From: Gammaproteobacteria bacterium | GTDB taxonomy: Bacteria; Pseudomonadota; Gammaproteobacteria; SZUA-229 | Length of the DNA: 64,000 nucleotides | Assembly: GCA_041589175.1 (NCBI GenBank) | Contig: JBFHWF010000002.1 | Location: 9,843 to 73,842, forward strand | Reading direction: 5' to 3' | Shown here: positions 50,982 through 64,000 of the stretch, piece after piece | Numbering within the stretch: the first letter of the stretch is position 1 | How the letters are laid out: each line of letters starts with the position of its first letter | Notes under the pieces: model-generated | Database searches by the model: none | Seen by the model: the letters and a program-made list of their open reading frames with translations, nothing else | What the model was told of the DNA's origin: nothing | Position numbers and translations under genes: made by a program

Positions 50982-52346
50982 ATGAAATGGTTTACAACAC
51001 AGGTTGGAACAATGGATACACAACAGCTTTCAGTTCTTCAGGTGGCAAAAACTCCCTCCGCAGCATCAAGGTCGACAACCGGTGTGACATCGACGGGGCA
51101 GGGTGAGGCAGAGTCACAGCCACAAGTATTCAAAGACCATCTTGAGCAGCAGCTAGAGCATCAGCTAGAGCAGCAGGTCGAAGCACCTGTCGAGTCCGAA
51201 TATCTACAAAAAACTGTTGATAATCAACAAGATAAAACAATGCATGAATCACCCGCTTCGACACTTCTCATGAACAATGAGGATGCCCTGGTGATGACTG
51301 CAGAGCAGCAGGCAATCATGCTGGATAGCAGAATCAGCACGGCGCTGAGTAGTCAGCCTGATTCACCTGAGCCGGGCTTGCCTGAACTCGATAGTTCAGC
51401 AGAATTGGTGATTCCGGGGCTAGCGACAGACATGCCATCTCAGAACGCAGGCTTGCCGCTGGGTGGCAATGCATTGCCGCAGGATCACATACCTCAACTC
51501 AGTCAGTCACCCGCACAGATAGTTTCCAGAGGTTTGCCATTTAAAGCTGCTAGTGACACAACTGTGATGACAGGCTCGCAGCCGGTGATCACAGGTCAGG
51601 CCACTGGTATACAGCAGGCTGTCTTAGCACAGGCCAGTATTGTACAGGCGCAAAGTGAATCGACTGATGTGCCAGTAACACAGTATATAGCACCGGTGTT
51701 GAAACCAGTGGTAGCAGCACTTGAGGGCGGGCTGCGTCAGGCCGAGGGTAAACCTGCACTGGATGCCATTTTCAGTCAGCTGTCAGCGACACAGGTGCTG
51801 AATCAGGCCAGCCTGCAGCAGCGAGTACCAGAACTGAACCAGACAATGAGTCCACAACTTTCAGTATTTAATGCCACACCTGTGATGGATTCACCGCTGA
51901 TGGCCAATGCTCAGACAGGTTTAAGTATTCCTGCGTCACTTGGAACTACGCAATGGTCACAGCAGATGAGTGAGCAGGTAAGTATGATGCTAAGAAATGG
52001 TCAGCAGGTCGCAGAAATCAGATTAAACCCGGCACATCTTGGGCCGATGGAAATTCGCCTGACAGTGAATGATGATCAGGCGAGTGTGAATTTTATTGCC
52101 CAGCATGCACCAGTACGTGATGCAATTGATCAGGCATTACCCCGTCTCAGGGATATGCTTGAGCAGCAGGGGCTGAATCTTGCGGATGTAGATGTAGCGA
52201 CTCATTCTGATACACAGCAGCAACAGGCAGAGGAATATTCAGCACAGGGTTCTGATGACGGAGAAGTTGTAACAGATAAGCAGGGTGAAACTCAGGGAGA
52301 TGTGGTACAGCGAGTGATTGATAGTGGATTAAGTCTCTATGCCTGA
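50982..52346 (+). CDS. fliK: Flagellar hook-length control protein FliK
   Basis: Q/P/S-rich ruler region and C-terminal FliK domain (AEIRLNPAHLGPMEIRLTV...QQGLNLADVDV). The true start is probably ATG 51012, given the promoter position. Confidence 0.88.
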   Translation: MKWFTTQVGTMDTQQLSVLQVAKTPSAASRSTTGVTSTGQGEAESQPQVFKDHLEQQLEHQLEQQVEAPVESEYLQKTVDNQQDKTMHESPASTLLMNNEDALVMTAEQQAIMLDSRISTALSSQPDSPEPGLPELDSSAELVIPGLATDMPSQNAGLPLGGNALPQDHIPQLSQSPAQIVSRGLPFKAASDTTVMTGSQPVITGQATGIQQAVLAQASIVQAQSESTDVPVTQYIAPVLKPVVAALEGGLRQAEGKPALDAIFSQLSATQVLNQASLQQRVPELNQTMSPQLSVFNATPVMDSPLMANAQTGLSIPASLGTTQWSQQMSEQVSMMLRNGQQVAEIRLNPAHLGPMEIRLTVNDDQASVNFIAQHAPVRDAIDQALPRLRDMLEQQGLNLADVDVATHSDTQQQQAEEYSAQGSDDGEVVTDKQGETQGDVVQRVIDSGLSLYA

Positions 52347-54823
52347 CGATGCATACTGGCTTCCGTCAGTAAGCTTAATGTCAGGTGAAGCAGTTCAGCA
52401 GAGTCGACGGGCTTTTTCATAAACCCCTTAATATGTAACTGTTCAGCACCTTCAGCAGTTATGGCATTACTATGTCCAGTGCATAGAATGATGGGTAATT
52501 CGGGGCGTAGTTCCAGCATCTGTGAGGCGAGTAAATCGCCGGTCAACCCGGGCATAGTCTGGTCGGTTATTATCAGATCAAACTGGTCAGGGTCGCGTTT
52601 AAAGGTTTCCAGTGCTTCTATCGAATCACAGTATGCTGCCGTTTCAAAACCGGCGTTTCTAAATAGCTCGGCGATAAATGAGGCTACGCTATTTTCATCG
52701 TCAACAATCATGAGTCGCTTGTTGGCGATTATTGACATGTCAATCGGCAATGTCTCACGCGTTTTTTCTTCGTTAACACGTTCCAGGTTAAATAACAGCT
52801 GAATCTGTGTTCCCTGCTGAGTATACTGTTCATCGATTCTGGAGCTGGAAATAATTATATGGCCGTTACTGCTATGAACAATGTCATTGGCGATTCGTAA
52901 TCCGGAGTTATTGCTATCGGCTGACTCGCTTTCAAGTAAATCTGTAATACTCTGTTTGCTAATACCCGGTCCATTATCCTGTATGGTAAGCACAGCATAT
53001 GAATGATCCAGAAGTTTGCCGCAACAGGTGCAATGTTTACCCTGAATGTTCTGACAATCGAGGTTAATAGACAATGTTCCCTTGCCGTTCATGGCGTTGC
53101 GAGAATTAATCAGTAGATGCATTAGCAGTTGGTTAAACCGTGATGCATTAATAAATACAGCAGGTATATCTGGAGCTATCGATGTTGCAATTTCCATGGA
53201 TGATGGCAATGCCGAACGTAGCATTTTGAGTGTGTTTTTTAGCAGTGAGGGCAGCACAATCGCCCTCGAGGATGATTCCTCCTGTAAATTTATGTTCTGT
53301 ATCTGCTCAATAATATCCCGAGCTTTGATTCCAGATTCGCGTATATGACCCAGATAGCTGGCTAGTTTTGCATCTGTGTTGTTTAAGTGTTCAATAGCAA
53401 GGTCAGAGAATCCCAGTATGCTTGCCAGGATGTTATTGAAATCATGTGCGATGCCGCCAGCAAGCATGCCCAGGGCTTCCATTTTCTGTGCCTGGTGAAG
53501 CTGGTTTTCGAGTAATTTCTGCTCTTCCTGTTGCTGAAGCTGAACGGTTATGTCGTCACCTGCAAAGATGACAGATATTGGTCGCTTATCATCACATATA
53601 ACAGTGCTTTTCCAGCGTATCTGTCGGCACTGATTATCATAGGTGATGATTGGAAGTTGCTCACTGGTGTGTGATTCAGTGTCTGGCGTTAGCTGACAAG
53701 TCAGTAACTGGTGAAAGTGATCACGAAAAGTTTGCCTGACCTCCTGTGGTATGAAACTGTCAATAAAATTCATTCCAGCCAGGTCGTTCTGCGTGCAACC
53801 AAGAATATGTGAAGCATGCTGGTTGGCTAGAACGATGCGTTCATGATTGTCCAGTACGATAATGAGAACCTCAGCCACATCAATATATCGACGCGAAAGT
53901 TCACGCTCATATTTGAGAGAGGCTTCCATGTGTTTTCTATTTATCGCTTCAGCAAGAATATTCGATATTGATTGCAGAAAATTCAGTTCATCGAATTTAA
54001 GTTTGGTTTCGAGTGGGCTGAATAAAATAAAAATTCCAAAAGGGTAGTTCTTTTCACCAATCAGTAGGCTGGTGAAGGATTTGTAGCTGTCTTTTATTAG
54101 CTCGTCGGGGAACTCGAACCGATGTTCAGCTTTTATGGATTCGCAGGAAACTGGTGTGTCGCTACTCATAGTAAAACCTATGAGGTTGGATCTTGATGCC
54201 TGTATTACGGTTTTTGCAGCTTTTACCTGTGGCGTATTATATGCGGCTTTTACGAGAGCGGATTTACCATTAATTGCTAGTTCAAGAATGATACCGGAAG
54301 ACATTCCAAGAGACCCACAGACAACGGCGAGTGTCTGCTCAAGTAGATCTGTTACTGGTATATTGCTAAGAGACACCTGCCCCAGTATTGCAATAAGACC
54401 CTGTCGATGCGCTCTCTGTTTGAGCCCGTCGATAAGCTTTTTTCTAGGTCGTGAATCTACCAGTTGCCCAATGTGGAACTGTTTATCATCTATCTGTGCC
54501 GGCGTGAAGGTGGCATCTAGCCAGATTGTTTCACCATCGCTGGTGATGAATTGAAGCTCACCCTTCCAGGTTTGTCTCGAATTTAATGTGCTGGCAAGAA
54601 AATCGTAGTTATTATGCGTGCTTTCAACATGAGTAAAATCTTTGATTGGGCATCTGGTCAATGCCTCCTGAGTGGTGTTTAGAAGGCTGGCAAAGCGTTG
54701 ATTGCAGTAGTGTATATTAAGCTCATCATCAAGAATACAGATGACAGAGTAATTCAGTGTCTGCTCTATCAGGTGCGATTCTAACTGCTGTTCAAGTTGC
54801 ATATTACTCGATAGGGAGGCCAA
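52337..54823 (-). CDS. Soluble hybrid histidine kinase (PAS, GAF, PAS, HisKA, atypical HATPase, receiver)
   Basis: H-box GGIAHDFNNILASI, N-box LLINSRNAM, DNGPGI, and receiver LIITDQTMPGLTG...KKP. ATG 54802 is an alternative start, 1 nt after the upstream REC stop. Confidence 0.85.
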   Translation of the reverse strand: MASLSSNMQLEQQLESHLIEQTLNYSVICILDDELNIHYCNQRFASLLNTTQEALTRCPIKDFTHVESTHNNYDFLASTLNSRQTWKGELQFITSDGETIWLDATFTPAQIDDKQFHIGQLVDSRPRKKLIDGLKQRAHRQGLIAILGQVSLSNIPVTDLLEQTLAVVCGSLGMSSGIILELAINGKSALVKAAYNTPQVKAAKTVIQASRSNLIGFTMSSDTPVSCESIKAEHRFEFPDELIKDSYKSFTSLLIGEKNYPFGIFILFSPLETKLKFDELNFLQSISNILAEAINRKHMEASLKYERELSRRYIDVAEVLIIVLDNHERIVLANQHASHILGCTQNDLAGMNFIDSFIPQEVRQTFRDHFHQLLTCQLTPDTESHTSEQLPIITYDNQCRQIRWKSTVICDDKRPISVIFAGDDITVQLQQQEEQKLLENQLHQAQKMEALGMLAGGIAHDFNNILASILGFSDLAIEHLNNTDAKLASYLGHIRESGIKARDIIEQIQNINLQEESSSRAIVLPSLLKNTLKMLRSALPSSMEIATSIAPDIPAVFINASRFNQLLMHLLINSRNAMNGKGTLSINLDCQNIQGKHCTCCGKLLDHSYAVLTIQDNGPGISKQSITDLLESESADSNNSGLRIANDIVHSSNGHIIISSSRIDEQYTQQGTQIQLLFNLERVNEEKTRETLPIDMSIIANKRLMIVDDENSVASFIAELFRNAGFETAAYCDSIEALETFKRDPDQFDLIITDQTMPGLTGDLLASQMLELRPELPIILCTGHSNAITAEGAEQLHIKGFMKKPVDSAELLHLTLSLLTEASMHRQA

Positions 54824-55181
54824 GTATAGTGTTGACGCTTTCCCTGAGCTCTTTTACGGTAAATGGTTTTTTTAGTGTTGTCTCAGCACCTACCAGTTTG
54901 GCTATTGGAAGGTAATCGAAACGACCTGTGATGCCTCCACCCCCAGATATCGCCAGTATGCGCATGTCAGGATAGGCCTTGCTGAATTCCATAATCATGT
55001 CTATGCCATTTTTTTCTGGCATTACAAGGTCTGCTATTAGCAGGTCAATTTTATTGTCTTTACAGATGGTTTCAGCATCCGCAACATTTTCAGCAGTGTG
55101 AACCTGATGATGCTCAGATAGTGCCTCATCGATAAACTGAAGAATTGATGTGTCGTCATCGACGACAAGTATTGTGCTCAT
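54804..55181 (-). CDS. Single-domain response regulator (receiver only)
   Basis: VVDDD, LLIADLVMPEKNG, AISGGGG and KKPF motifs. Confidence 0.88.
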   Translation of the reverse strand: MSTILVVDDDTSILQFIDEALSEHHQVHTAENVADAETICKDNKIDLLIADLVMPEKNGIDMIMEFSKAYPDMRILAISGGGGITGRFDYLPIAKLVGAETTLKKPFTVKELRESVNTILGLPIE

Positions 55182-55214
55182 TGTATGGAACAGCCATATA
55201 TCGTTAATTCAATA

Positions 55215-56402
55215 TTAGAATAGCTCAATATCACCATTTGTCATCGATTGCTGAGATATTGGGTTCCGATTCATTCTAAGATCAAAATCTTGTATTTCAG
55301 AGAGCGTTGTCTGGAAAATCTCAACCAGGGCGTCGAGATTGAGGCTGCTATCAGTCTGATTATCAAGCGACTGGTTGATAGTTGCATCCATGCTGGAAAT
55401 CAGTAGTAACTTCTGAATGCGTGTGTCCATATGGCTGGACAACTGGGTAACCATGTCTTCAAACTGTAAAGATTGAATAGCGAGGCCAACATGTCGATTT
55501 AAAAGGTCTGATATCTTGGAAATTTCGGACAATTTGTTCGAAGTTTCTATGTTCCGGGCTTCGATCTCATGCATCATGTCATCCAGATGCGTTTTGTTAG
55601 AAATCGTCATATTCATATCACTTGATGCCATTCGACCAACCTGTGTGTTGGCGATTGATATCGTGTCCGCTGTACTGGTGAACTGTTCACGAATCTGGTC
55701 GCTAAAATTCTGGCTTCTCTGAGATAGTGATCTAACTTCATCGGCGACGACGGCGAAGCCACGACCCTGATCGCCTGCTCGGGCGGCTTCTATGGCAGCA
55801 TTCAGTGCCAGCAAATTAGTCTGGGCACTAATGGAGTCCATTTCATCCAGTAGTTTCAGAACTTTCTCGTAATCATTACGTACCTGATTTAATGAGTTCA
55901 CAAGCTCCATGCTCTGCTTGCTCATATCAGTAATGTTTTGCATGATGGTTTTCAGAGTGTCGGCAGCATCTACGGCAAGCCCCTGAATCGTCTTGTGATT
56001 ATCAGACTCATTAGATACATCATCGACTAGTGAAAATACCATATTTTTCTGTTGCATCGATTCACGTTCCAGTCCCTGGAAACTCGCAACAAGGCCCTTA
56101 ATAGCGGTATTCAATAATGACTGAATCTGTTCGTTCTCTGTTTTAACGATTTTGACTTCCTGTTTGCACACAGAGTGAGTTTCGGAAATCAGTCTTGCCA
56201 GTTGTTCACTATTGTCGATGGTGGAGGCGCTCTGCCCAGAATCTATCGTACTGCTGGATGTACTGCTTATGATGATGAGAGCTACGGCTGTTAGAAGAGC
56301 AATGCTTCCGTATGCAGTAATACCCGTTGGGAATACACTGTACAGTGCGATACAGATGATCGCTATGATTATAACGCTCAGGTGTTTCTTGTAATTTCTC
56401 AT
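55215..56402 (-). CDS. Membrane-anchored MCP with a TM hairpin and no periplasmic sensor domain
   Basis: Two adjacent TM helices and the MCP hairpin [32 protein letters not shown]. It also has an [10 protein letters not shown] motif and a C-terminus ending GDIELF. The TTG at 56429 is an alternative start. Confidence 0.85.
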
Positions 56403-56462
56403 ATTGATAATTAACGAATAAAGTATCAAGCAATAGCTTGTGGATATTTAATCATCAACAGG

Positions 56463-57545
56463 TTAATTAATGTCGTTACCTATCGATGGCCCATGAAACT
56501 CCGTGCATCCTATCTGTTTTGCAAACTCTAGTTCTTTTGGTGTGGAAATATCAGCACCAATTATTGTTATGTTACGGTTTTTATAAGCTTCCAGCATTAT
56601 TGATATGTTATTGCTGTTATTGAGCGAAATATATGTTAGTGGAATATCGATCTCAATCGCATCACATCGACTGTTTTTGATGATATTCAGTACATGTAGT
56701 GAAAAACTGAACCTTTCTATGTGCATCCTGGTATTAAGCTCTGATACTGCATTATACAAATGCTCATAGTCTTTTCTGTAAAGTTGTGACTCGCTGAATA
56801 CGCATTCAACCTGCGCCTCAGATATTTTCTCTGAACGCAGAGTATCTCGAAGCATAGATACGAACTGTACTGGATTTGCATTAAAAGGCTGAATATAGAT
56901 AGCCAGTCTGTCTGTTTTGTTATCGTTTTTGAACTGCTTGCAGGCACGTTCTATCAGAATTCTTGCATGACGCAGCTGCAGAGGTGTGTCCGGGCTGAGC
57001 AGACGTTTATTTTTAGCTTCGAGCTGATTAAACTGGACTAGTTGTGTTACCGGCTGCTCATAATCAATCGATAGTCGATAACGTATGCTGACTCTATACT
57101 CGTTGTTTTCAATATCAGTTGCCAGATTGGTCGCGTCCCGAATAATACTGGCAGGTGTATTATGATGTGCGCGTGATATACGGTGCTTTAGTACAGACCA
57201 GTTAATTGGTTTGGTAATGTAATCATCAGCACCTGCGTTGAAAGCTTCCTCAACCGAGTTATCATCGTCAAGGCTGGTGATAATGATGGTGGGTATATCA
57301 GCATAGCGCTCCTTAATTTTTCGGCATGCCTCAAAACCGTTGAGTTCTGGCATAACCGCATCCAGTAGCACCATGTCTATATGATTCTGCTCAAGTAATG
57401 TTAATACTTCCATGCCATTGGCAGCATCATGGGTGATGTACCTTTCTTTTTCCAGTATATGCTTCAGCAGGAATCGTACAGATGGGTCATCATCGGCGAT
57501 AATGATATGCGGTCTATCGTGCTGGGCTATGCTTTGTCCATTCAA
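56463..57545 (-). CDS. Response regulator: receiver plus degenerate EAL-like domain
   Basis: REC motifs IIADDD, LLDAVMPELNG and TKP. The C-terminal roughly 210 aa has an EAL-fold-like pattern but with substituted catalytic motifs. The TTG start is preceded by AGGA. Confidence 0.7.
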   Translation of the reverse strand: MNGQSIAQHDRPHIIIADDDPSVRFLLKHILEKERYITHDAANGMEVLTLLEQNHIDMVLLDAVMPELNGFEACRKIKERYADIPTIIITSLDDDNSVEEAFNAGADDYITKPINWSVLKHRISRAHHNTPASIIRDATNLATDIENNEYRVSIRYRLSIDYEQPVTQLVQFNQLEAKNKRLLSPDTPLQLRHARILIERACKQFKNDNKTDRLAIYIQPFNANPVQFVSMLRDTLRSEKISEAQVECVFSESQLYRKDYEHLYNAVSELNTRMHIERFSFSLHVLNIIKNSRCDAIEIDIPLTYISLNNSNNISIMLEAYKNRNITIIGADISTPKELEFAKQIGCTEFHGPSIGNDIN

Positions 57546-57965: not shown

Positions 57966-58328
57966 ATGGCGAGTATATTGGCGGTTGATGACTCATCATC
58001 TATGCGGCAGATGGTGTCTTTTACCTTGAAAGGTGCCGGCTACCAGGTCACTGAGGCTGCTGATGGGCAGGAAGCACTGAATAAGGCGAAAGCACAACAG
58101 TTTGATCTCATCATAACTGACGTAAATATGCCGGTAATGGATGGTATTACATTTATACGTCATCTACGCGGTGAAGCGAATTATCGATTTACCCCCATGC
58201 TCATGCTAACAACTGAATCTGCTGCAGACAAAAAGGCAGAAGGTAAGGCTGCGGGTGCAACTGGGTGGATCGTAAAACCATTCAATCCCGATCAGTTACT
58301 GAATACCATTAAGAAGGTACTGCGCTAG
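57966..58328 (+). CDS. cheY: Chemotaxis response regulator CheY
   Basis: ILAVDDSSSMRQM, IITDVNMPVMDG, LTTES and WIVKPF motifs. The internal ATG at 57966 fits the domain boundary. Confidence 0.9.
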   Translation: MASILAVDDSSSMRQMVSFTLKGAGYQVTEAADGQEALNKAKAQQFDLIITDVNMPVMDGITFIRHLRGEANYRFTPMLMLTTESAADKKAEGKAAGATGWIVKPFNPDQLLNTIKKVLR

Positions 58329-58351: not shown

Positions 58352-60394
58352 ATGTCGATAGATCTGGCTCAGTTTCACGAGACATTTTTCGAAGAAAGTT
58401 TTGAAGGGCTGGATGTTATGGAGTCAGGCCTGCTCGAGCTCGAGCAGGGCGAAGTTGACCTGGAAAACATCAATACAATCTTCAGATCAGCTCACTCAAT
58501 CAAAGGCGGCAGCGGCACGTTCGGTTTTACCGCAGTAGCAGATTTCACACATGATATGGAAACCCTGTTAGACCAGATGCGCAATGGCGATCGCCAGGTA
58601 ACCGCTGATATCGTAAATGTACTTCTGGGTTGTGTTGACACGCTTAGAAGTATGCTCACTGCGATCAAGGATAAGGAAGATGTTGACGTCACCGCTGTCG
58701 CGGAAATGTCAGCAAAACTGCAGGCCATTCTTAATGGTGAAGTGGTACATGACGGTGCACCTGGAGAACAGGTCAACGATACGGTTGTTACGAGCAAGGA
58801 ACAATCTACGGGTGATGGCTGGAATATCTGTTTTACGCCTTTTCAAGACATTATGAAGACTGGCAATGATACTGTCAGGTTGATAAGAGAGTTAAGAGAA
58901 CTGGCTCAGGAATCAGAAGTGGAGGCCATTACTGATAATTTGCCAGCGCTTGAAGAAATCGATCCTGAAGGGAGTTATATCAGCTGGAATATACGCCTGT
59001 ATGGCCAGGATATTAATGAAGAAGAAATACGTGAAGTCTTTGCGTGGGTCGATGATGAATGTGAACTTGAGATAAAGCCTCTGGTTGTTGGTGCTGCATA
59101 TACAGGCCCGGAGCGACGCGATGACTCACGCAGGCAGGAAGATGCACCTGACAGACGTTCTACAGACAGAAGAAGTAAGGCCTCAGAATCATCATCGATT
59201 CGCGTTAATATCAGTAAGGTTGATGAACTGATCAATATGGTCGGTGAACTGGTTATAACACAGTCAATGTTGAGCCAGTTTGGTGATGATGAGTTCAATG
59301 AGCAGCATCTGGAGCGGCTGAAAGATGGATTATCTCAATTAGAGAGCCACACCCGCGAACTTCAGGAAAGCGTCATGCGTATTCGGATGATGCCTATCAG
59401 CTTTGCATTTCAGAGATTTCCACGACTTGTGCATGACCTGAGTACACAGTTTGGTAAGAAAATCGAACTGGTTATGTCGGGTGAAAATACCGAGCTAGAC
59501 AAAACTGTACTCGAAAAAATTGGTGATCCACTTGTGCATCTTGTTAGAAACTCACTGGATCATGGTATTGAATCACCAGAATCACGGATAAATGCAGGCA
59601 AATCAGAAACCGGTGTTATCGAGCTTAAGGCTTATCATCAGGGTGGCAATATTGTCATAGAGATAAGGGATGATGGTGCTGGCCTCAATAAAGAAAAGAT
59701 ACTGACTAAAGCGCGGGATAATAACCTGATAGGTAATGATGAAAGACTATCAGATGAACAGATATACGATCTGATATTCAGGCCAGGTTTCTCCACAGCC
59801 GATGTGATTAGTGATGTATCGGGTCGTGGTGTAGGAATGGATGTTGTCAGGAGAAATATAAGAGAACTTGGGGGTGCAGTTGATGTCGCTTCAAGTCCAG
59901 GTGAAGGATCAGTTTTCACAATTCGTCTGCCGCTGACACTTGCAATACTCGATGGGCAGCTGGTGGGCATAGGTGATGAAACCTATATCCTGCCTGTTAT
60001 CTCTATCGTTGAATCCCTGCAGGTGAGAGAAGAAAACATTAATGCTGTTGCTGGTAATGCTGAAGTTTACAGGCTGAGAGAAGAATACATTCCTATTGTC
60101 AGATTGTATCAGATATTTGATATTCAGCCGGCCTCAGAAAAATTATCGGATGGCTTGCTGGTAGTCGTTGAGGCAGAGGGTAAGAAAATAGCTATCTTTG
60201 TAGATGACCTATTAGGGCAGCAGCAGGTTGTAATAAAGAGCCTGGAAACAAATTTTAGAAAAGTAGAAGGCGTATCCGGTGCAACCATACTGGGAAATGG
60301 CACGGTGTCCCTGATAATTGATATTGCAGGGCTCATAGAATTGTACCAGAACGATATTGCCGGTCTTGCACCCTCGGTAAAAGGTGCGGCTTAG
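58352..60394 (+). CDS. cheA: Chemotaxis histidine kinase CheA
   Basis: P1 motif RSAHSIKGGSGTFGF, P3/P4 motifs (DPLVHLVRNSLDHGIE, DDGAGL, GRGVGMD) and a P5 CheW-like domain. Confidence 0.95.
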   Translation: MSIDLAQFHETFFEESFEGLDVMESGLLELEQGEVDLENINTIFRSAHSIKGGSGTFGFTAVADFTHDMETLLDQMRNGDRQVTADIVNVLLGCVDTLRSMLTAIKDKEDVDVTAVAEMSAKLQAILNGEVVHDGAPGEQVNDTVVTSKEQSTGDGWNICFTPFQDIMKTGNDTVRLIRELRELAQESEVEAITDNLPALEEIDPEGSYISWNIRLYGQDINEEEIREVFAWVDDECELEIKPLVVGAAYTGPERRDDSRRQEDAPDRRSTDRRSKASESSSIRVNISKVDELINMVGELVITQSMLSQFGDDEFNEQHLERLKDGLSQLESHTRELQESVMRIRMMPISFAFQRFPRLVHDLSTQFGKKIELVMSGENTELDKTVLEKIGDPLVHLVRNSLDHGIESPESRINAGKSETGVIELKAYHQGGNIVIEIRDDGAGLNKEKILTKARDNNLIGNDERLSDEQIYDLIFRPGFSTADVISDVSGRGVGMDVVRRNIRELGGAVDVASSPGEGSVFTIRLPLTLAILDGQLVGIGDETYILPVISIVESLQVREENINAVAGNAEVYRLREEYIPIVRLYQIFDIQPASEKLSDGLLVVVEAEGKKIAIFVDDLLGQQQVVIKSLETNFRKVEGVSGATILGNGTVSLIIDIAGLIELYQNDIAGLAPSVKGAA

Positions 60395-60412: not shown

Positions 60413-60925
60413 ATGTCGGAAATAGCTGAAGAAATAGAGCACCAGGAAATAGCGAATGAGTATAAAGAGCTATTAACATTTTTTCTGGCTGGTGAGGAGT
60501 ATGGCGTCGATATTCTGCGCGTACAGGAAATAAAGGGCTGGGATACCGTTACAAATATACCCAATACACCTGAATATATTCGAGGTGTTATCAATATACG
60601 TGGCAGCATAGTGCCAATTATTGATATGCGACTGAGGTTCAATCTGGAGAAAAGAGACTACGATGCAACAACTGTCGTGATCGTGCTCAATGTCATGCGT
60701 GGTAATAAAGAGAGTCGAACCATGGGTATTGTCGTTGATGCGGTTTCTGATGTTTATAACATCCCGCTGGATGATGTTAAAGCATCACCAGATTTTGGTA
60801 CTGCTGTAGATACAGAGTTCGTTACTGGTCTGGCAACAGTTAATGAAAAGATGATTATCGTGCTTGATATTGACCATATGCTAAATGCAGCCGAGCTGGA
60901 AGTGATTGATACGATATCTGAATAA
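60413..60925 (+). CDS. cheW: Chemotaxis coupling protein CheW
   Basis: LLTFFLAGEEYGVDILRVQEIKG...GVINIRGSIVPIIDMR. Confidence 0.93.
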   Translation: MSEIAEEIEHQEIANEYKELLTFFLAGEEYGVDILRVQEIKGWDTVTNIPNTPEYIRGVINIRGSIVPIIDMRLRFNLEKRDYDATTVVIVLNVMRGNKESRTMGIVVDAVSDVYNIPLDDVKASPDFGTAVDTEFVTGLATVNEKMIIVLDIDHMLNAAELEVIDTISE

Positions 60926-60941
60926 TCGAACATATGATTAA

Positions 60942-61691
60942 ATGACAAGAAAGATCGCTGTAATCAATCAGAAAGGTGGCGTCGGTAAAACTACGACTAC
61001 TGCAAATCTCGGATATTTGCTTGCGGAAAATGGATCGACTGTAACATTAATTGATCTCGATCCTCAGAGTAGCTTGACTGTAAGTCTGGGTGTTGACTGG
61101 AGAGAGCATAAAGGTATTGAAGACGTGCTTTTGCACGGTGAATGTCTTGAAGATGTAGTCGTTAAAAAAAATTCACGGCTAAATCTGGTTGCTTCTGGTA
61201 ATCACCTGGGGCAAGCAGAGCATATAGATCAGGAGTCATCAGCTATTGCAAAAAAATTGAGGGATGTAATTGCAGGTATAGAAGATGACTATGTTCTTAT
61301 AGATTGTCCGCCATCATCTGGGTTTCTCATAGTGAGTGCACTATATGCAGTTGATGAGGTGCTGATACCGATTGCTGCAGATTATCTGACATTACATGGT
61401 CTGTCGCATTTGATAGGAACGATACAGGGGTTCGAGCAGCGCATTGGGCATAGCATTGCTAAGCGATTCGTAGTGACTCGCTATCATCCTAGAAGAAGGC
61501 TGGCGAATGATGTCAGGGAAAAGTTGCATGTATATTTTCCAGGTGAGGTGCTAGAGACCTGTATCAGGGAGTCTAGCTCGCTTGCTGAGGCGCCAGGATT
61601 TGGTAAAACGATTTATGAATATCAGCGTAATTCTAATGGCTGTGAAGACTATAGAAAACTGGCCGCTGAGTTTGCAATGATTGAGATGTAA
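60942..61691 (+). CDS. ParA/Soj-family deviant Walker-A ATPase encoded inside the che operon
   Basis: IAVINQKGGVGKTTTTANL (signature Lys plus P-loop) and Walker B-like YVLIDCPP. Confidence 0.88.
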   Translation: MTRKIAVINQKGGVGKTTTTANLGYLLAENGSTVTLIDLDPQSSLTVSLGVDWREHKGIEDVLLHGECLEDVVVKKNSRLNLVASGNHLGQAEHIDQESSAIAKKLRDVIAGIEDDYVLIDCPPSSGFLIVSALYAVDEVLIPIAADYLTLHGLSHLIGTIQGFEQRIGHSIAKRFVVTRYHPRRRLANDVREKLHVYFPGEVLETCIRESSSLAEAPGFGKTIYEYQRNSNGCEDYRKLAAEFAMIEM

Positions 61692-61693
61692 GT

Positions 61694-62557
61694 ATGCCAA
61701 GAAAGAAAAAAACAATGATAGGTGTTGATCCTCTGGCCTGGCTTAATGAGGAAAGTGAATCACAAACTGTTGTGACTGAGTCAGGTAGTAATACCGATGA
61801 AGAAAATATAATGTCACAGTCTGATCGTGATCTAAAATCAACTATGTTGGGTTATGAGTTCGATGAGTCAGAACTCATCAAGGGTTTTGAAAGAATTGTT
61901 CCATGTATGCAGGAAGTCGAGGATGCTGTCTCAACATATGTAACTGGTTTGAGAAGTGACTGGGAAGATTCTGAAATTAAAGAGATACAAGCGCATTCCA
62001 TGTCGGTAATTCGATTCATTGTTGATCATCATGCAGACGAAGATATTTTGCTGTCACATATAGCGGCTAATAAAGGCTTGTTTAGTAAAGTCGTTAGTGC
62101 GGATGAATACAGCACGGATAATATGTTAGCGGCAGTCAAGAAGGTTGTTGGGAGAGGATGGACGAAAGCGATTAATGCTGCCTGGTCGGGTATCGTCAAT
62201 GTGGTTATTGAGCATGTTGAAGATGATGAGCATAAGGAGAAATCGATAGATGTGCCTGAAGTTGTTGATGTGAAAACGGATGTACCTGGTAACCGTATAG
62301 AATTGCATGAGATACAGGATATTAGTCGATCTCAAGCGCTAAAGAATGAGTTGCTGAGTCTCGTAAATGAGAATGATGAAATCGAAATTGATGGTAGCAG
62401 GGTGGAGCGAATCGATGGTACTGCGCTACAGCTCCTTTGTGCATTATACAGATATGCGCATAGTAATAATATCTCAATACACTGGGCAGGGTGTTCTGAA
62501 GCGCTCATTGAATCAGCTAATGCTGTAGGTTTAAAACAGCTGACTGGTATTGATTAA
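61694..62557 (+). CDS. STAS-domain protein with a basic N-terminal tail and a helical central region
   Basis: The C-terminal roughly 100 aa fits the STAS pattern (EIDGSRVERIDGTALQLLCALYRYA...ISIHWAGCSEAL). The N-terminus is MPRKKKTMIGVDPLAWL. It starts 2 nt after the parA stop. Confidence 0.65.
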   Translation: MPRKKKTMIGVDPLAWLNEESESQTVVTESGSNTDEENIMSQSDRDLKSTMLGYEFDESELIKGFERIVPCMQEVEDAVSTYVTGLRSDWEDSEIKEIQAHSMSVIRFIVDHHADEDILLSHIAANKGLFSKVVSADEYSTDNMLAAVKKVVGRGWTKAINAAWSGIVNVVIEHVEDDEHKEKSIDVPEVVDVKTDVPGNRIELHEIQDISRSQALKNELLSLVNENDEIEIDGSRVERIDGTALQLLCALYRYAHSNNISIHWAGCSEALIESANAVGLKQLTGID

Positions 62558-62573
62558 GTTTTGGAGTATGAAG

Positions 62574-64000
62574 ATGAGTGGAATAGTGGCAGAAGACTTA
62601 AAGCCCCATGACGTTGATGTTTTAGAACGAAGTTTTGATCAGGTTGCGCCCCATGCACAGGACCTTGTTAGCAGGTTTTATGAAAGGCTTTTCGAAAAAT
62701 ATCCTGATGTAAGGCCAATGTTTGAGGGTACAGATATCAATGCTCAGAAACAGAAATTGCTTGCCTCTTTGAAGCTTGTAATTGGGAATCTGAGAAAGCC
62801 TGATGTGCTTGAGGAGTCTCTGAAAGAGTTAGGTCGACGCCATCAGGGATATGGTGCAGTAGAAGCGCATTATCAGGCTGTGGCAGAAACATTGATAGGC
62901 GTAATGAAAGAAATTGTGGGTAGTCAATGGAATTCTGAAATAGAACAGGCCTGGACAAAGGCATTGTCGAAAATAGCTGAGATTATGCTTGGTGCTTACA
63001 GTAGCAATGAGCAGGATGAAACTGGAGAGAATGAAATGAATGACATGGTTATTAATGAAGAAAGCATGCAAGAGCTTGCTAGATTGCGCTCTGCTGTAAG
63101 TGGTGCGATGCAGGCGATGATGATGATAGATAGAGATTTTAATATTACCTATGTCAATCAGGCGACCACGGCTCTTCTGAAAAAACATGAACATGTTATG
63201 CGTCAGGAATACCCCGGGTTTGAGGCTGATAATATGTTAGGCAAGAATATAGATATATTTCATTCAAACCCAGCACATCAAAGACAGTTGTTGAGTAATC
63301 CTTCGAATCTCCCATATTCTACAGTGATTCATGTTGCGCACCTGTCTTTCAAGCTCAACGTTACGGCGATGATCGATGACGAGGGTAATTATATAGGTAA
63401 TACACTTGAGTGGGCTGATGTAACGGATGAGCTGGAAAAAGCAAGCCAGGCAGCTCGATTACAGGGAGCAATCGATGCATCAATGCAGGCGATCATAATG
63501 ATTGACAGGGATTTTGTTGTTACTTACGCCAATCAGTCGAGTATAGATTTACTGTCGAAATATCAGATGCAATTAAGTGCAGTGTATCCAGGATTTAGTC
63601 CTGCTAAATTGATTGGTAGCTGTATCGATATGTTTCATAAAAATCCACAGCACCAGAGAACTATGTTGGCAGATCCTTCTAATCTACCCTATCAGACCGA
63701 TATCGAGATCGGCGACCTGAAGTTTTCCTTGAATGTTACAGCTATCATGGATGCTCAGGACAGATATGTTGGTAATACGCTCGAATGGTCTGATGTTACT
63801 GAAGTCAGGCAAAAGGAGATTGAGGTAGCCAGATTGCAGTCTGCCGTGGATGGCGCTCAGGCAAATCTTATGATCTGTGATACGGATATGTTCATCACCT
63901 ATGCAAATCCTGCTGTGATTGAAATGATGGCGGCAAGAGCAGATAAACTAAGGAAGATATTTCCTGGCTTCGATGCACGAAACCTTGTCGGCCAGAATAT
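62574..64000 (+). CDS. Soluble globin plus tandem-PAS sensor protein, 3' partial (probable chemoreceptor; output domain lies outside the window)
   Basis: This ORF is absent from the ORF track because no stop occurs before the window end. I translated it by hand. GGAG lies 7 nt before ATG 62574. It encodes a globin (FYERLFEKYPDVRPMF, LGRRHQGYGAVEAHY) and at least 3 PAS-like modules. Confidence 0.8.
   Translation, partial: MSGIVAEDLKPHDVDVLERSFDQVAPHAQDLVSRFYERLFEKYPDVRPMFEGTDINAQKQKLLASLKLVIGNLRKPDVLEESLKELGRRHQGYGAVEAHYQAVAETLIGVMKEIVGSQWNSEIEQAWTKALSKIAEIMLGAYSSNEQDETGENEMNDMVINEESMQELARLRSAVSGAMQAMMMIDRDFNITYVNQATTALLKKHEHVMRQEYPGFEADNMLGKNIDIFHSNPAHQRQLLSNPSNLPYSTVIHVAHLSFKLNVTAMIDDEGNYIGNTLEWADVTDELEKASQAARLQGAIDASMQAIIMIDRDFVVTYANQSSIDLLSKYQMQLSAVYPGFSPAKLIGSCIDMFHKNPQHQRTMLADPSNLPYQTDIEIGDLKFSLNVTAIMDAQDRYVGNTLEWSDVTEVRQKEIEVARLQSAVDGAQANLMICDTDMFITYANPAVIEMMAARADKLRKIFPGFDARNLVGQN

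Follow-up and report, generated by a model that had tools for sequence, protein, structure and literature searches.

Globin-coupled sensors are defined by the sensor-globin lineage, and receptors of the Aer2 family are thought to sense oxygen (O2) only through PAS domains that bind haem (PAS-haem). In HemAT-type sensors, the globin leads helically into the signalling rod. The usual scheme assigns the myoglobin-like (M) family to flavohaemoglobins and free-standing globins and the S family to sensors, and the receptor described here does not fit it. Its gene lies on the forward (+) strand at positions 62574..64000 of the window, by which we mean the whole 64,000-nucleotide stretch of contig JBFHWF010000002.1 from a Gammaproteobacteria bacterium, and only its 5' part is contained there: 475 codons are visible from the ATG at 62574, in frame to the window end, and they encode a globin followed by three PAS domains, the third incomplete, of an Aer2-type receptor. 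This globin-Aer2 fusion is genuine, occurs widely in sequence data, and, to the extent of our searches, is neither described nor characterized. We hold it moderately likely that the protein is an Aer2-type PAS-haem O2 receptor with a tethered globin, of the type of Hell's Gate globin I (HGbI), that would bind haem and a gas ligand and modulate or extend the response.

The PAS-haem domains of Aer2 share three hallmarks, namely an E-eta histidine as haem ligand, an O2-stabilizing I-beta tryptophan, and a DxT motif, and PAS, HAMP, or periplasmic domains have so far been described as the N-terminal modules of these receptors (PMC10107281). The core of an Aer2-type receptor comprises the last PAS domain, di-HAMP, and a 36H kinase-control domain with a pentapeptide at its C-terminus. 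The word "globin" is absent from the accessible part of a survey of 130 Aer2-like receptors (PMC7184735), and no myoglobin-family globin receptor is listed in the available portion of a 2026 aerotaxis review. In the searchable literature, which left subscription-only sources such as a 2013 census of bacterial globins outside its scope, we met with no account of Aer2, CheA, or CheW carrying a fused globin of the myoglobin family.

The N-terminal globin and its lineage

The receptor gene starts 17 nucleotides (nt) past the stop codon of the preceding gene, with a Shine-Dalgarno (SD) motif GGAG (62563..62566, +) read 7 nt before the start codon. Residues 13-142 (62610..62999, +) form the globin domain, as delimited with Pfam Globin, AlphaFold2 (AF2), and Foldseek. 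Pfam Globin (PF00042) matched residues 34-137 with 67.1 bits (E = 2.6e-18; cut-off 22), which is well past chance. In the comparison of the Globin and Protoglobin profiles, set beforehand as the refuting test of the lineage, Protoglobin, which represents the sensor globins, reached 24.3 bits, below its cut-off of 25, and Bac_globin scored 23.7 bits. The AF2 model of the domain is all-helical, comprising helices A-C and E-H, and has a predicted local distance difference test (pLDDT) score of 93.2. Its best structural match in Foldseek is oxygen-bound HGbI (3s1i), with a template modelling (TM) score of 0.94 and a root-mean-square deviation of 1.1 Å, followed by flavohaemoglobin, Vitreoscilla haemoglobin (VHb), thermoglobin, and neuroglobins; the top 50 Foldseek matches are all of the myoglobin family, with no S-family structure among them.

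Alignment to solved globins assigns Phe35 and Tyr36, within FYERLF, to B9 and B10 (Tyr36 codon 62679-62681, +), Phe50, within VRPMF, to CD1 (62721-62723, +), Leu62 to E11, His90, within GRRHQGYG, to F8 (62841-62843, +), and Tyr100, within AHY, to G5 (62871-62873, +). Position E7 falls on Gln58, the first Gln of QKQKLL (62745-62747, +), when the closer relatives 3wfw and 3s1i are used, and on Lys59, one residue off, in the alignment to VHb; the counterpart of Gln58 in HGbI is Gln50 at E7. Helix H corresponds to EQAWTKALSKIAEIM. Across 36 globin domains of fused homologues, the overall identity of which is only ∼50%, Phe35, Tyr36, Phe50, His90, and Trp127 are invariant in the alignment, and Gln58, Leu62, and Tyr100 are conserved in at least 90% of the sequences. 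Read from these residues and from the model, the domain is a 3-on-3 globin with an intact haem pocket. An earlier note on this DNA had proposed, by eye, a 3/3 globin at the N-terminus with a Tyr at B10, a Gln at E7, a proximal His at F8, and a matching H helix, and all of these assignments were borne out, including that of the F8 His, the absence of which had been named as a reason to abandon the idea. The note had also ended the domain at 63020; the region was right, but this coordinate falls inside the linker, and the folded domain ends at about residue 142 (62999).

The fused homologues behave alike. Pfam Globin matched 36 of the 36 fused homologues, with Protoglobin giving weak matches (best E = 1.8e-6). 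In a phmmer search of the PDB, the window globin matched 3wfw (2.6e-23), 3s1i (4e-18), and VHb (1e-15), and a profile of the 36 domains gave 134 bits for 3wfw and 131 for HGbI, followed by VHb and Ralstonia flavohaemoglobin (95 each) and, lower, by Campylobacter Cgb (83) and neuroglobins (∼69). The best 60 PDB profile matches are all of the myoglobin family, and no HemAT, globin-coupled sensor, or protoglobin entry is found among them. The globin is thus a member of the myoglobin-like (M/F) family, and its nearest clade is that of the HGbI-like single-domain globins, not VHb or the flavohaemoglobins proper. The VHb/flavohaemoglobin lineage assigned by eye was therefore correct as to the family, which is M/F and not that of sensor globins, and needs refining as to the nearest clade.

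Two other identities were considered and rejected. A sensor globin of the S family was discarded on the Protoglobin score below cut-off and on the lack of S-family entries among the best PDB profile and fold matches. A flavohaemoglobin was discarded as well, since PAS domains and no FAD/NAD(P)H reductase domain follow the globin, and since the NCBIfam Hmp model (NO-inducible flavohemoprotein, NO being nitric oxide), in which residues 14-163 cover positions 7-162 of 399, scored 69 bits, far below its cut-off of 432.

Receptor body, linker, and possible internal start

Behind the globin, PAS1 (residues 162-286; 63057..63431, +) and PAS2 (residues 287-411; 63432..63806, +) are PAS-haem domains of the Aer2 type, and the remaining sequence (63807..64000, +) holds a connector helix and the first half of PAS3, cut at the window end and matched by Pfam PAS_8 at residues 419-469. 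Motif alignment identified the presumptive haem ligands His230 in PAS1 (63261-63263, +) and His355 in PAS2 (63636-63638, +), together with Trp280 (63411-63413, +) and Trp405 (63786-63788, +) and DVT motifs at residues 282-284 and 407-409, respectively. Searched against the PDB with phmmer, PAS1 matched Vibrio cholerae Aer2 (6ceq, 2e-27) and Pseudomonas aeruginosa Aer2 (3vol, 1e-22; 4hi4, 2e-21), and its FH(K/S)NPAHQR and W-D-T motifs align with all three structures. In both PAS domains, Trp lies 50 residues after His, as it does in the Vibrio vulnificus Aer2 pairs H101/W151, H228/W278, and H353/W403 (PMC10107281). With these residues in place, the PAS domains are probably haem sensors themselves.

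On the NCBIfam model of Vibrio Aer2 (NF041847; 804 positions), residues 148-475 matched positions 16-348 with 423 bits. The equivalog cut-off of 1200 bits was missed both by this fragment, which comes from a partial gene, and by full-length relatives, namely L001 (979 amino acids (aa), three PAS domains; positions 19-804, 992 bits), P0053 (889 bits), and L030 (781 bits). By sequence, the receptor is therefore a member of the Aer2 family and not a Vibrio Aer2 equivalog or orthologue. What is visible of PAS3 can be aligned to the final PAS domain of P0053, after which come HAMP, a methyl-accepting chemotaxis protein (MCP) domain, and DEWEEF at the C-terminus; HAMP_2, MCPsignal, and an EWEEF end are found in relatives, which measure ∼800-1000 aa when full-length. 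PAS3 is expected to be the PAS domain in contact with the di-HAMP unit. What had been announced as a multi-PAS protein in a che operon does have three PAS domains and CheY-CheA-CheW upstream, and can now be specified as an Aer2-type PAS-haem chemoreceptor. The accompanying view of the globin as the sensor of this protein stood in part: a haem globin does occupy the N-terminus, but the PAS domains keep the Aer2 haem residues, and the globin is probably an accessory input.

Globin and PAS1 are joined by a flexible acidic linker (residues 143-161; 63000..63056, +). When residues 1-475 were modelled with AF2, globin and PAS domains came out confidently and the PAS-PAS connectors (residues 284-302 and 409-427) as continuous helices, whereas residues 141-161 were without secondary structure, with pLDDT values below 50 at residues 145-160. 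In 107 homologues, the linker is usually 10-39 aa long (median 23), of low complexity, and not conserved in sequence.

The linker also contains an element resembling a ribosome-binding site (RBS) with a start codon (63024..63038, +), in which GGAG (63024-63027) is followed by an 8-nt spacer and an in-frame ATG (63036-63038; Met155), closely mirroring the GGAG-7 nt-ATG of the gene's own start. A second linker ATG (Met158) was read at 63045-63047 (+). In 34 of the 37 fused loci with short linkers, a GGAG, GAGG, or AGGA core precedes an in-frame linker ATG by 5-9 nt, and when ATGs are counted, 35 of 48 linker ATGs have such a core, compared to 53 of 931 (5.7%) other internal ATGs in the same open reading frames (ORFs; Fisher p = 1.6e-29). 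The residues that follow the linker Met resemble the N-termini of globin-less receptors (MSDDTLTSDERLEL in P0067 versus TTMSNNTLNEDERLEL in the L002 linker), and the linkers between globins in tandem arrays are without the SD-ATG signature seen before PAS1.

At locus L045, 45 nt separate a free-standing gene for a globin of 147 aa from the globin-MCP gene downstream of it (L045:9995-13665). The operon has the order CheY-CheA-CheW-globin-(globin-MCP)-ParA-(motif protein)-CheR, and this arrangement looks like an unfused intermediate. Most likely, the fusion arose by loss of the stop codon between an upstream globin gene and aer2, with the old RBS and start codon kept in the linker, and a globin-less isoform of the receptor may be co-produced from this internal start. 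The retention of the signals in deeply diverged sequences, with unfused pairs almost absent, suggests that they are still in use. In Escherichia coli, CheA-long and CheA-short are two products of one gene, made via an internal start; the receptor gene is alike in that an in-frame internal RBS and ATG, here predicted, could yield a form without the N-terminal domain.

Recurrence of the fusion and its chemosensory setting

With a nine-sequence globin alignment as query, a motif scan across 185,579 species, each represented by one genome, returned 51 loci, which we sorted with purpose-built hidden Markov models (HMMs) for globin, Aer2-PAS, and MCP. In 45 of these, one to three globins and one to four PAS domains share a single ORF, which reaches the MCP domain in 39 loci and is cut by the contig end in the other six. 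Among complete arrangements, one globin precedes two PAS domains and MCP at 20 loci, three PAS domains and MCP at 15, and one or four PAS domains and MCP at one locus each, while two globins with four PAS domains and MCP, and three globins with three PAS domains and MCP, were each found once. The scan also gave two loci with a free-standing globin, two with a globin inside CheA, one with CheW and three globins (L011), one with three tandem globins in a cut ORF (L012), and one where the ORF was cut too early for classification and only a globin was visible (L022). Pfam confirmed representatives, including those of the cultured Kineobactrum sediminis F02 and Thioalkalivibrio sulfidiphilus ALJ17, so that at least two cultured species stand among the mostly uncultured carriers. 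The main carriers are marine, vent, and soda-lake Gammaproteobacteria, namely Thioalkalispiraceae, Chromatiales, Cycloclasticus, Porticoccus, Haliea, and Pseudohongiella, and a few further carriers are Holophagae, Myxococcales, and other metagenome-assembled genomes (MAGs).

The protein database gave a similar picture. Searched with the 475-aa fragment, it returned the globin in roughly half of the 120 best-matching proteins, and the Aer2 proteins of Vibrio, Enterovibrio, and Grimontia cover the PAS part of the fragment only. With the globin domain alone as query, only single-domain globins at most 58% identical were retrieved, and the fused family surfaced with the 475-aa query. The nearest database match to the window receptor is 62% identical, and the nearest genomic globin match, from the motif scan, 60% identical. 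The "unusual sensor design" of the earlier note is thus unusual when set against the literature but not rare in sequence data, where it is found in 45 species-level genomes.

Pairwise identities of the globin and of the MCP domain are correlated across 59 proteins (Spearman 0.60), which fits long co-inheritance. Sorted by PAS similarity, globin-less receptors are interleaved with globin-bearing ones, indicating that the globin was gained or lost more than once. The closest globin-less receptor, P0059, is 72% identical in PAS1, and its locus reads CheA-CheW-STAS-Aer2-CheR-CheD-CheB, with no globin upstream. With such receptors interleaved, a single gain of the globin could not be shown.

Several variants of the architecture were observed. 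Tandem arrays of two to at least four globins head some receptors (L004:8969-12811, L020:4825-8640, and L012:9959-11419, as well as P0048, P0069, P0111, P0162, and P0163). Other members have a module inserted after the globin and ahead of their Aer2-type PAS domains: a GAF domain in a Myxococcales MAG (L047:9965-13054), a hydrophobic, probably membrane-spanning stretch in Pseudohongiella (L046:9998-13243), and, at five loci (L010, L013, L039, L040, and L041), an extra PAS-like region that is not of the Aer2 type.

The same globin clade was detected on other chemosensory proteins. In two Thioalkalispiraceae MAGs, CheA carries it between the Hpt and dimerization domains, the usual place of P2 (L035:5199-7667 and L032:136-2388); in Pfam, the L035 protein reads Hpt 7-107, Globin 276-379 (60 bits), and H-kinase_dim 419-483. 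L011:692-2515 is a 607-aa ORF with CheW (117 bits) followed by three tandem Globin stretches in Pfam, and L039:8945-9871 encodes a 308-aa protein composed of a K-rich IGFDPLAWL motif, an intact globin, and STAS (Pfam Globin and STAS_2). The STAS-domain protein encoded directly upstream of the window receptor (61694..62557, +) is a full-length homologue of the latter (blastp, 1e-45). It has a K-rich IGVDPLAWL motif (residues 3-17; 61700-61744, +), a degenerate globin-derived domain (∼residues 55-181) in which the B10 Phe-Tyr and the F8 His are lost, and a STAS domain (residues 203-282; Pfam STAS_2, 48.6 bits). Residues 141-181 match the G and H helices of the fused-globin HMM with 17.5 bits, and this degenerate globin is probably haem-free.

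The motif, in the form of a K-rich segment and G(F/V/L)DPL(A/S)W(M/L), stands at the head either of the globin-MCP or of the neighbouring small STAS protein. As GFDPLAW, it heads 14 fused receptors (L003, L004, L015, L017, L018, L020, L021, L023, L027, L029, L031, L033, L049, and L051). In each of the loci inspected (the window, L032, L035, and L045), a neighbouring gene encodes a ParA-like ATPase, and we suspect that the motif may serve as a handle for this ATPase, by analogy with the partitioning of cytoplasmic arrays in Rhodobacter.

Fusion to several array proteins and variable copy number suggest that it is the presence of this globin at the array that matters. It is possible, although we advance the idea tentatively, that the HGbI-type globin is a portable haem module for the arrays of gammaproteobacterial Aer2/F7-like systems, carried, depending on the lineage, by the receptor in one to three copies, by CheA in place of P2, by CheW, and by STAS proteins, and that in addition the conserved internal RBS and ATG let one receptor gene make forms with and without globin. 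If this is true, the amount of globin in the array would be set at translation, in a receptor counterpart of CheA-long and CheA-short, and a second, non-S-family class of globin-coupled chemosensory proteins would exist.

In the window, the receptor gene belongs to a che operon that has, upstream and in the same orientation, CheY (57966-58328, +; Pfam Response_reg), CheA (58352-60394, +; Pfam Hpt, H-kinase_dim, HATPase_c, and CheW), and CheW (60413-60925, +; Pfam CheW). Between cheW and the STAS gene, in the same orientation as the receptor, lies the gene of a ParA/MinD-family ATPase (60942..61691, +; Pfam AAA_31, 137 bits, and CbiA; NCBIfam ParA_partition, 117 bits, below cut-off), which recalls the partitioning ATPases of cytoplasmic chemoreceptor clusters. 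In the globin-less relative L052, CheR-CheD-CheB follow the receptor gene. A divergent signalling cluster on the minus strand (52337-57545) adjoins the operon and comprises a REC-EAL protein (56463-57545, -), a 404-aa MCP with an N-terminal hydrophobic segment and without a recognized sensor domain, possibly McpA-like (55215-56429, -), a single REC protein (54804-55181, -), and a PAS-PAS-HisKA-HATPase-REC hybrid kinase (52337-54823, -). The GC content of the window is 47.7%.

Proposed function and comparison with known systems

In the mechanism that we propose, the protein would be a soluble Aer2-family chemoreceptor composed of the N-terminal globin, tandem PAS-haem domains, and, by homology, di-HAMP, a kinase-control domain, and a C-terminal EWEEF-type tether. 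O2 would bind the PAS haems, and the last PAS domain would signal through HAMP and the kinase-control domain to CheA (58352-60394) and CheY, as in characterized Aer2 receptors. The globin would bind haem b at His90 and, with the help of Tyr36 and Gln58, O2 (or NO), its affinity probably exceeding that of the PAS haems. It would modulate or extend the gas response by touching PAS1 or its neighbours in the array, or else by conditioning the ligand pool around it. It would be a tethered accessory module and not an in-line primary sensor of the HemAT kind. The linker, flexible, non-helical, and variable, argues for such a role, as does the behaviour of V. vulnificus Aer2, in which a core of the last PAS domain, di-HAMP, and kinase-control domain signals alone and the upstream PAS domains only modulate (PMC10107281).

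Several points weigh against this reading. Haem binding, ligand, and affinity of the globin are read from conserved residues. The visible gene is the N-terminal half, and we infer its continuation into HAMP and MCP past the window end from homologues. The AF2 model is a monomer; in a dimer, the linker might become ordered or the globin might dock onto PAS1. The interleaving of globin-less with globin-bearing receptors indicates that the globin is dispensable for core function. Instead of marking a start, the SD-like motif in the linker could result from Glu/Gly-rich codons or act as a pause site. Finally, tandems of two to three globins and the several fusion partners are explained no less well by a stoichiometric role, as buffer, scavenger, or enzyme, than by allostery.

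This last point leads to the alternative that survives best, which we consider somewhat unlikely but serious: the globin may not be a signal input at all but an array-tethered NO dioxygenase, or a scavenger or store of O2 or NO, that would protect or condition the PAS-haem sensors by removing blocking NO or smoothing local O2. A pocket with Tyr at B10 and Gln at E7 is typical of NO-dioxygenating bacterial globins, the 69-bit match was to the NO-inducible flavohemoprotein model, and the PDB neighbours include VHb, flavohaemoglobins, Cgb, and Rhodothermus NO dioxygenase. The flexible tether and the one to three tandem globins per protein are likewise in keeping with it, and the fusion of the module to MCP, CheA, CheW, and STAS suggests that location counts for more than a specific allosteric contact. 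However, turnover needs a reductase, of which there is none in the protein (a partner reductase in the window was not searched for), and the present evidence does not tell catalysis from reversible binding.

A classical globin-coupled sensor, in which the globin would be the primary O2 sensor and its conformational change would be relayed in line through the PAS array, seems improbable to us. In its favour, HemAT likewise has a globin N-terminal in an MCP, conservation of the haem pocket is strict, and connector helices are known to let tandem PAS domains relay signals (PMC10107281). However, the globin is not of the sensor family, helical continuity from helix H to the PAS1 N-cap is lacking because the intervening linker is disordered, variable, and of low complexity, haem and O2 ligands are retained in the PAS domains themselves, and close relatives function without a globin.

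It is more improbable still that the globin fold is a haem-free scaffold, acting as a spacer or as an oligomerization or localization module of a cytoplasmic array. The neighbouring STAS protein, whose globin-derived domain has lost its haem ligands, indicates that a haem-free fold is tolerated here, and the K-rich GFDPLAW motif of STAS proteins heads many fused receptors too. In the receptors, however, the 36 sequences, although only ∼50% identical, all have Tyr at B10, Phe at CD1, and His at F8, and no fewer than 90% of them have Gln at E7 and Tyr at G5; selection for haem and ligand binding would produce this pattern, which counts against a scaffold. An assembly artefact, by which a sequencing or assembly error deleted the stop codon between separate globin and aer2 genes, is hardly credible, for although an RBS and ATG stand exactly where the second gene would start, the frame is open in 45 independent genomes and dozens of metagenomic proteins.

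An Aer2-type receptor with a tethered accessory globin would combine an M-family globin with two to four PAS-haem domains, that is, up to four or more haems per chain, and would offer a natural system for studying how one array integrates haem sensors of two chemical kinds, the affinities of which are expected to differ. The receptor could also reveal what HGbI-type globins do. These questions are testable in the cultured carriers Kineobactrum sediminis and Thioalkalivibrio sulfidiphilus and with the established Aer2 "hijack" assay in E. coli, and the internal start and the CheA, CheW, and STAS fusions, if confirmed, would be of general interest for the biology of chemosensory arrays.

Among described systems, receptors that combine PAS, Bac_globin, and MCPsignal have been reported in silico, namely Cc_4972 of Corallococcus coralloides and six others (PMC6194562). 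They resemble the window receptor in joining a globin-superfamily domain, PAS, and MCP in one soluble receptor of a che cluster, and the body is related, but their globin is a truncated 2-on-2 globin of the T family, whereas that of the window is a 3-on-3 globin of the M family. Membership of the window receptor in this type was rejected, as Bac_globin scored only 23.7 bits against 67.1 for Globin and the fold is 3-on-3. P0052 (826 aa), which has the Cc_4972-type architecture, is 39% identical to the window fragment and has an N-terminal Bac_globin of 56.5 bits; set beside the M-family globin of the window, it indicates that Aer2-type receptors captured globins of two families independently.

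As for the globin itself, HGbI of Methylacidiphilum infernorum (3s1i) is the best structural match and, with 131 bits, among the two best sequence matches, and shares Tyr B10, Gln E7, and His F8; it differs in being free-standing, while the window globin is part of a chemoreceptor. Two further proteins pair a globin of the same lineage with a partner other than a reductase, namely 3wfw, the Chloroflexus globin-Roadblock/LC7 protein that is the best PDB sequence match, and 9q05, the globin domain of a cyanobacterial NO synthase. Both differ from the window receptor in their partner domains and in having no chemotaxis output.

HemAT and other S-family globin-coupled sensors share with the window receptor a haem globin at the N-terminus of an MCP (the MCP part by homology in our case) and presumably gas-directed taxis. 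They differ in that the window globin matches Pfam Globin and not Protoglobin, in that PAS-haem domains lie between globin and output, and in that a flexible linker takes the place of a helix. The Aer2 receptors of P. aeruginosa, V. cholerae, and V. vulnificus, the last with three PAS domains, belong to the F7 system and have these features in common with the window receptor: tandem PAS domains with the E-eta His, the I-beta Trp, and DxT, a soluble protein, di-HAMP, a kinase-control domain, and an EWEEF-type tail in relatives, and a gene near cheY-cheA-cheW. The window receptor stands apart from them by its N-terminal globin, by the ParA-like ATPase and STAS genes that its operon carries in addition, and by the manner of coupling, which is rigid from PAS to PAS in Aer2 (PMC10107281), in contrast to the flexible linker that tethers the window globin.

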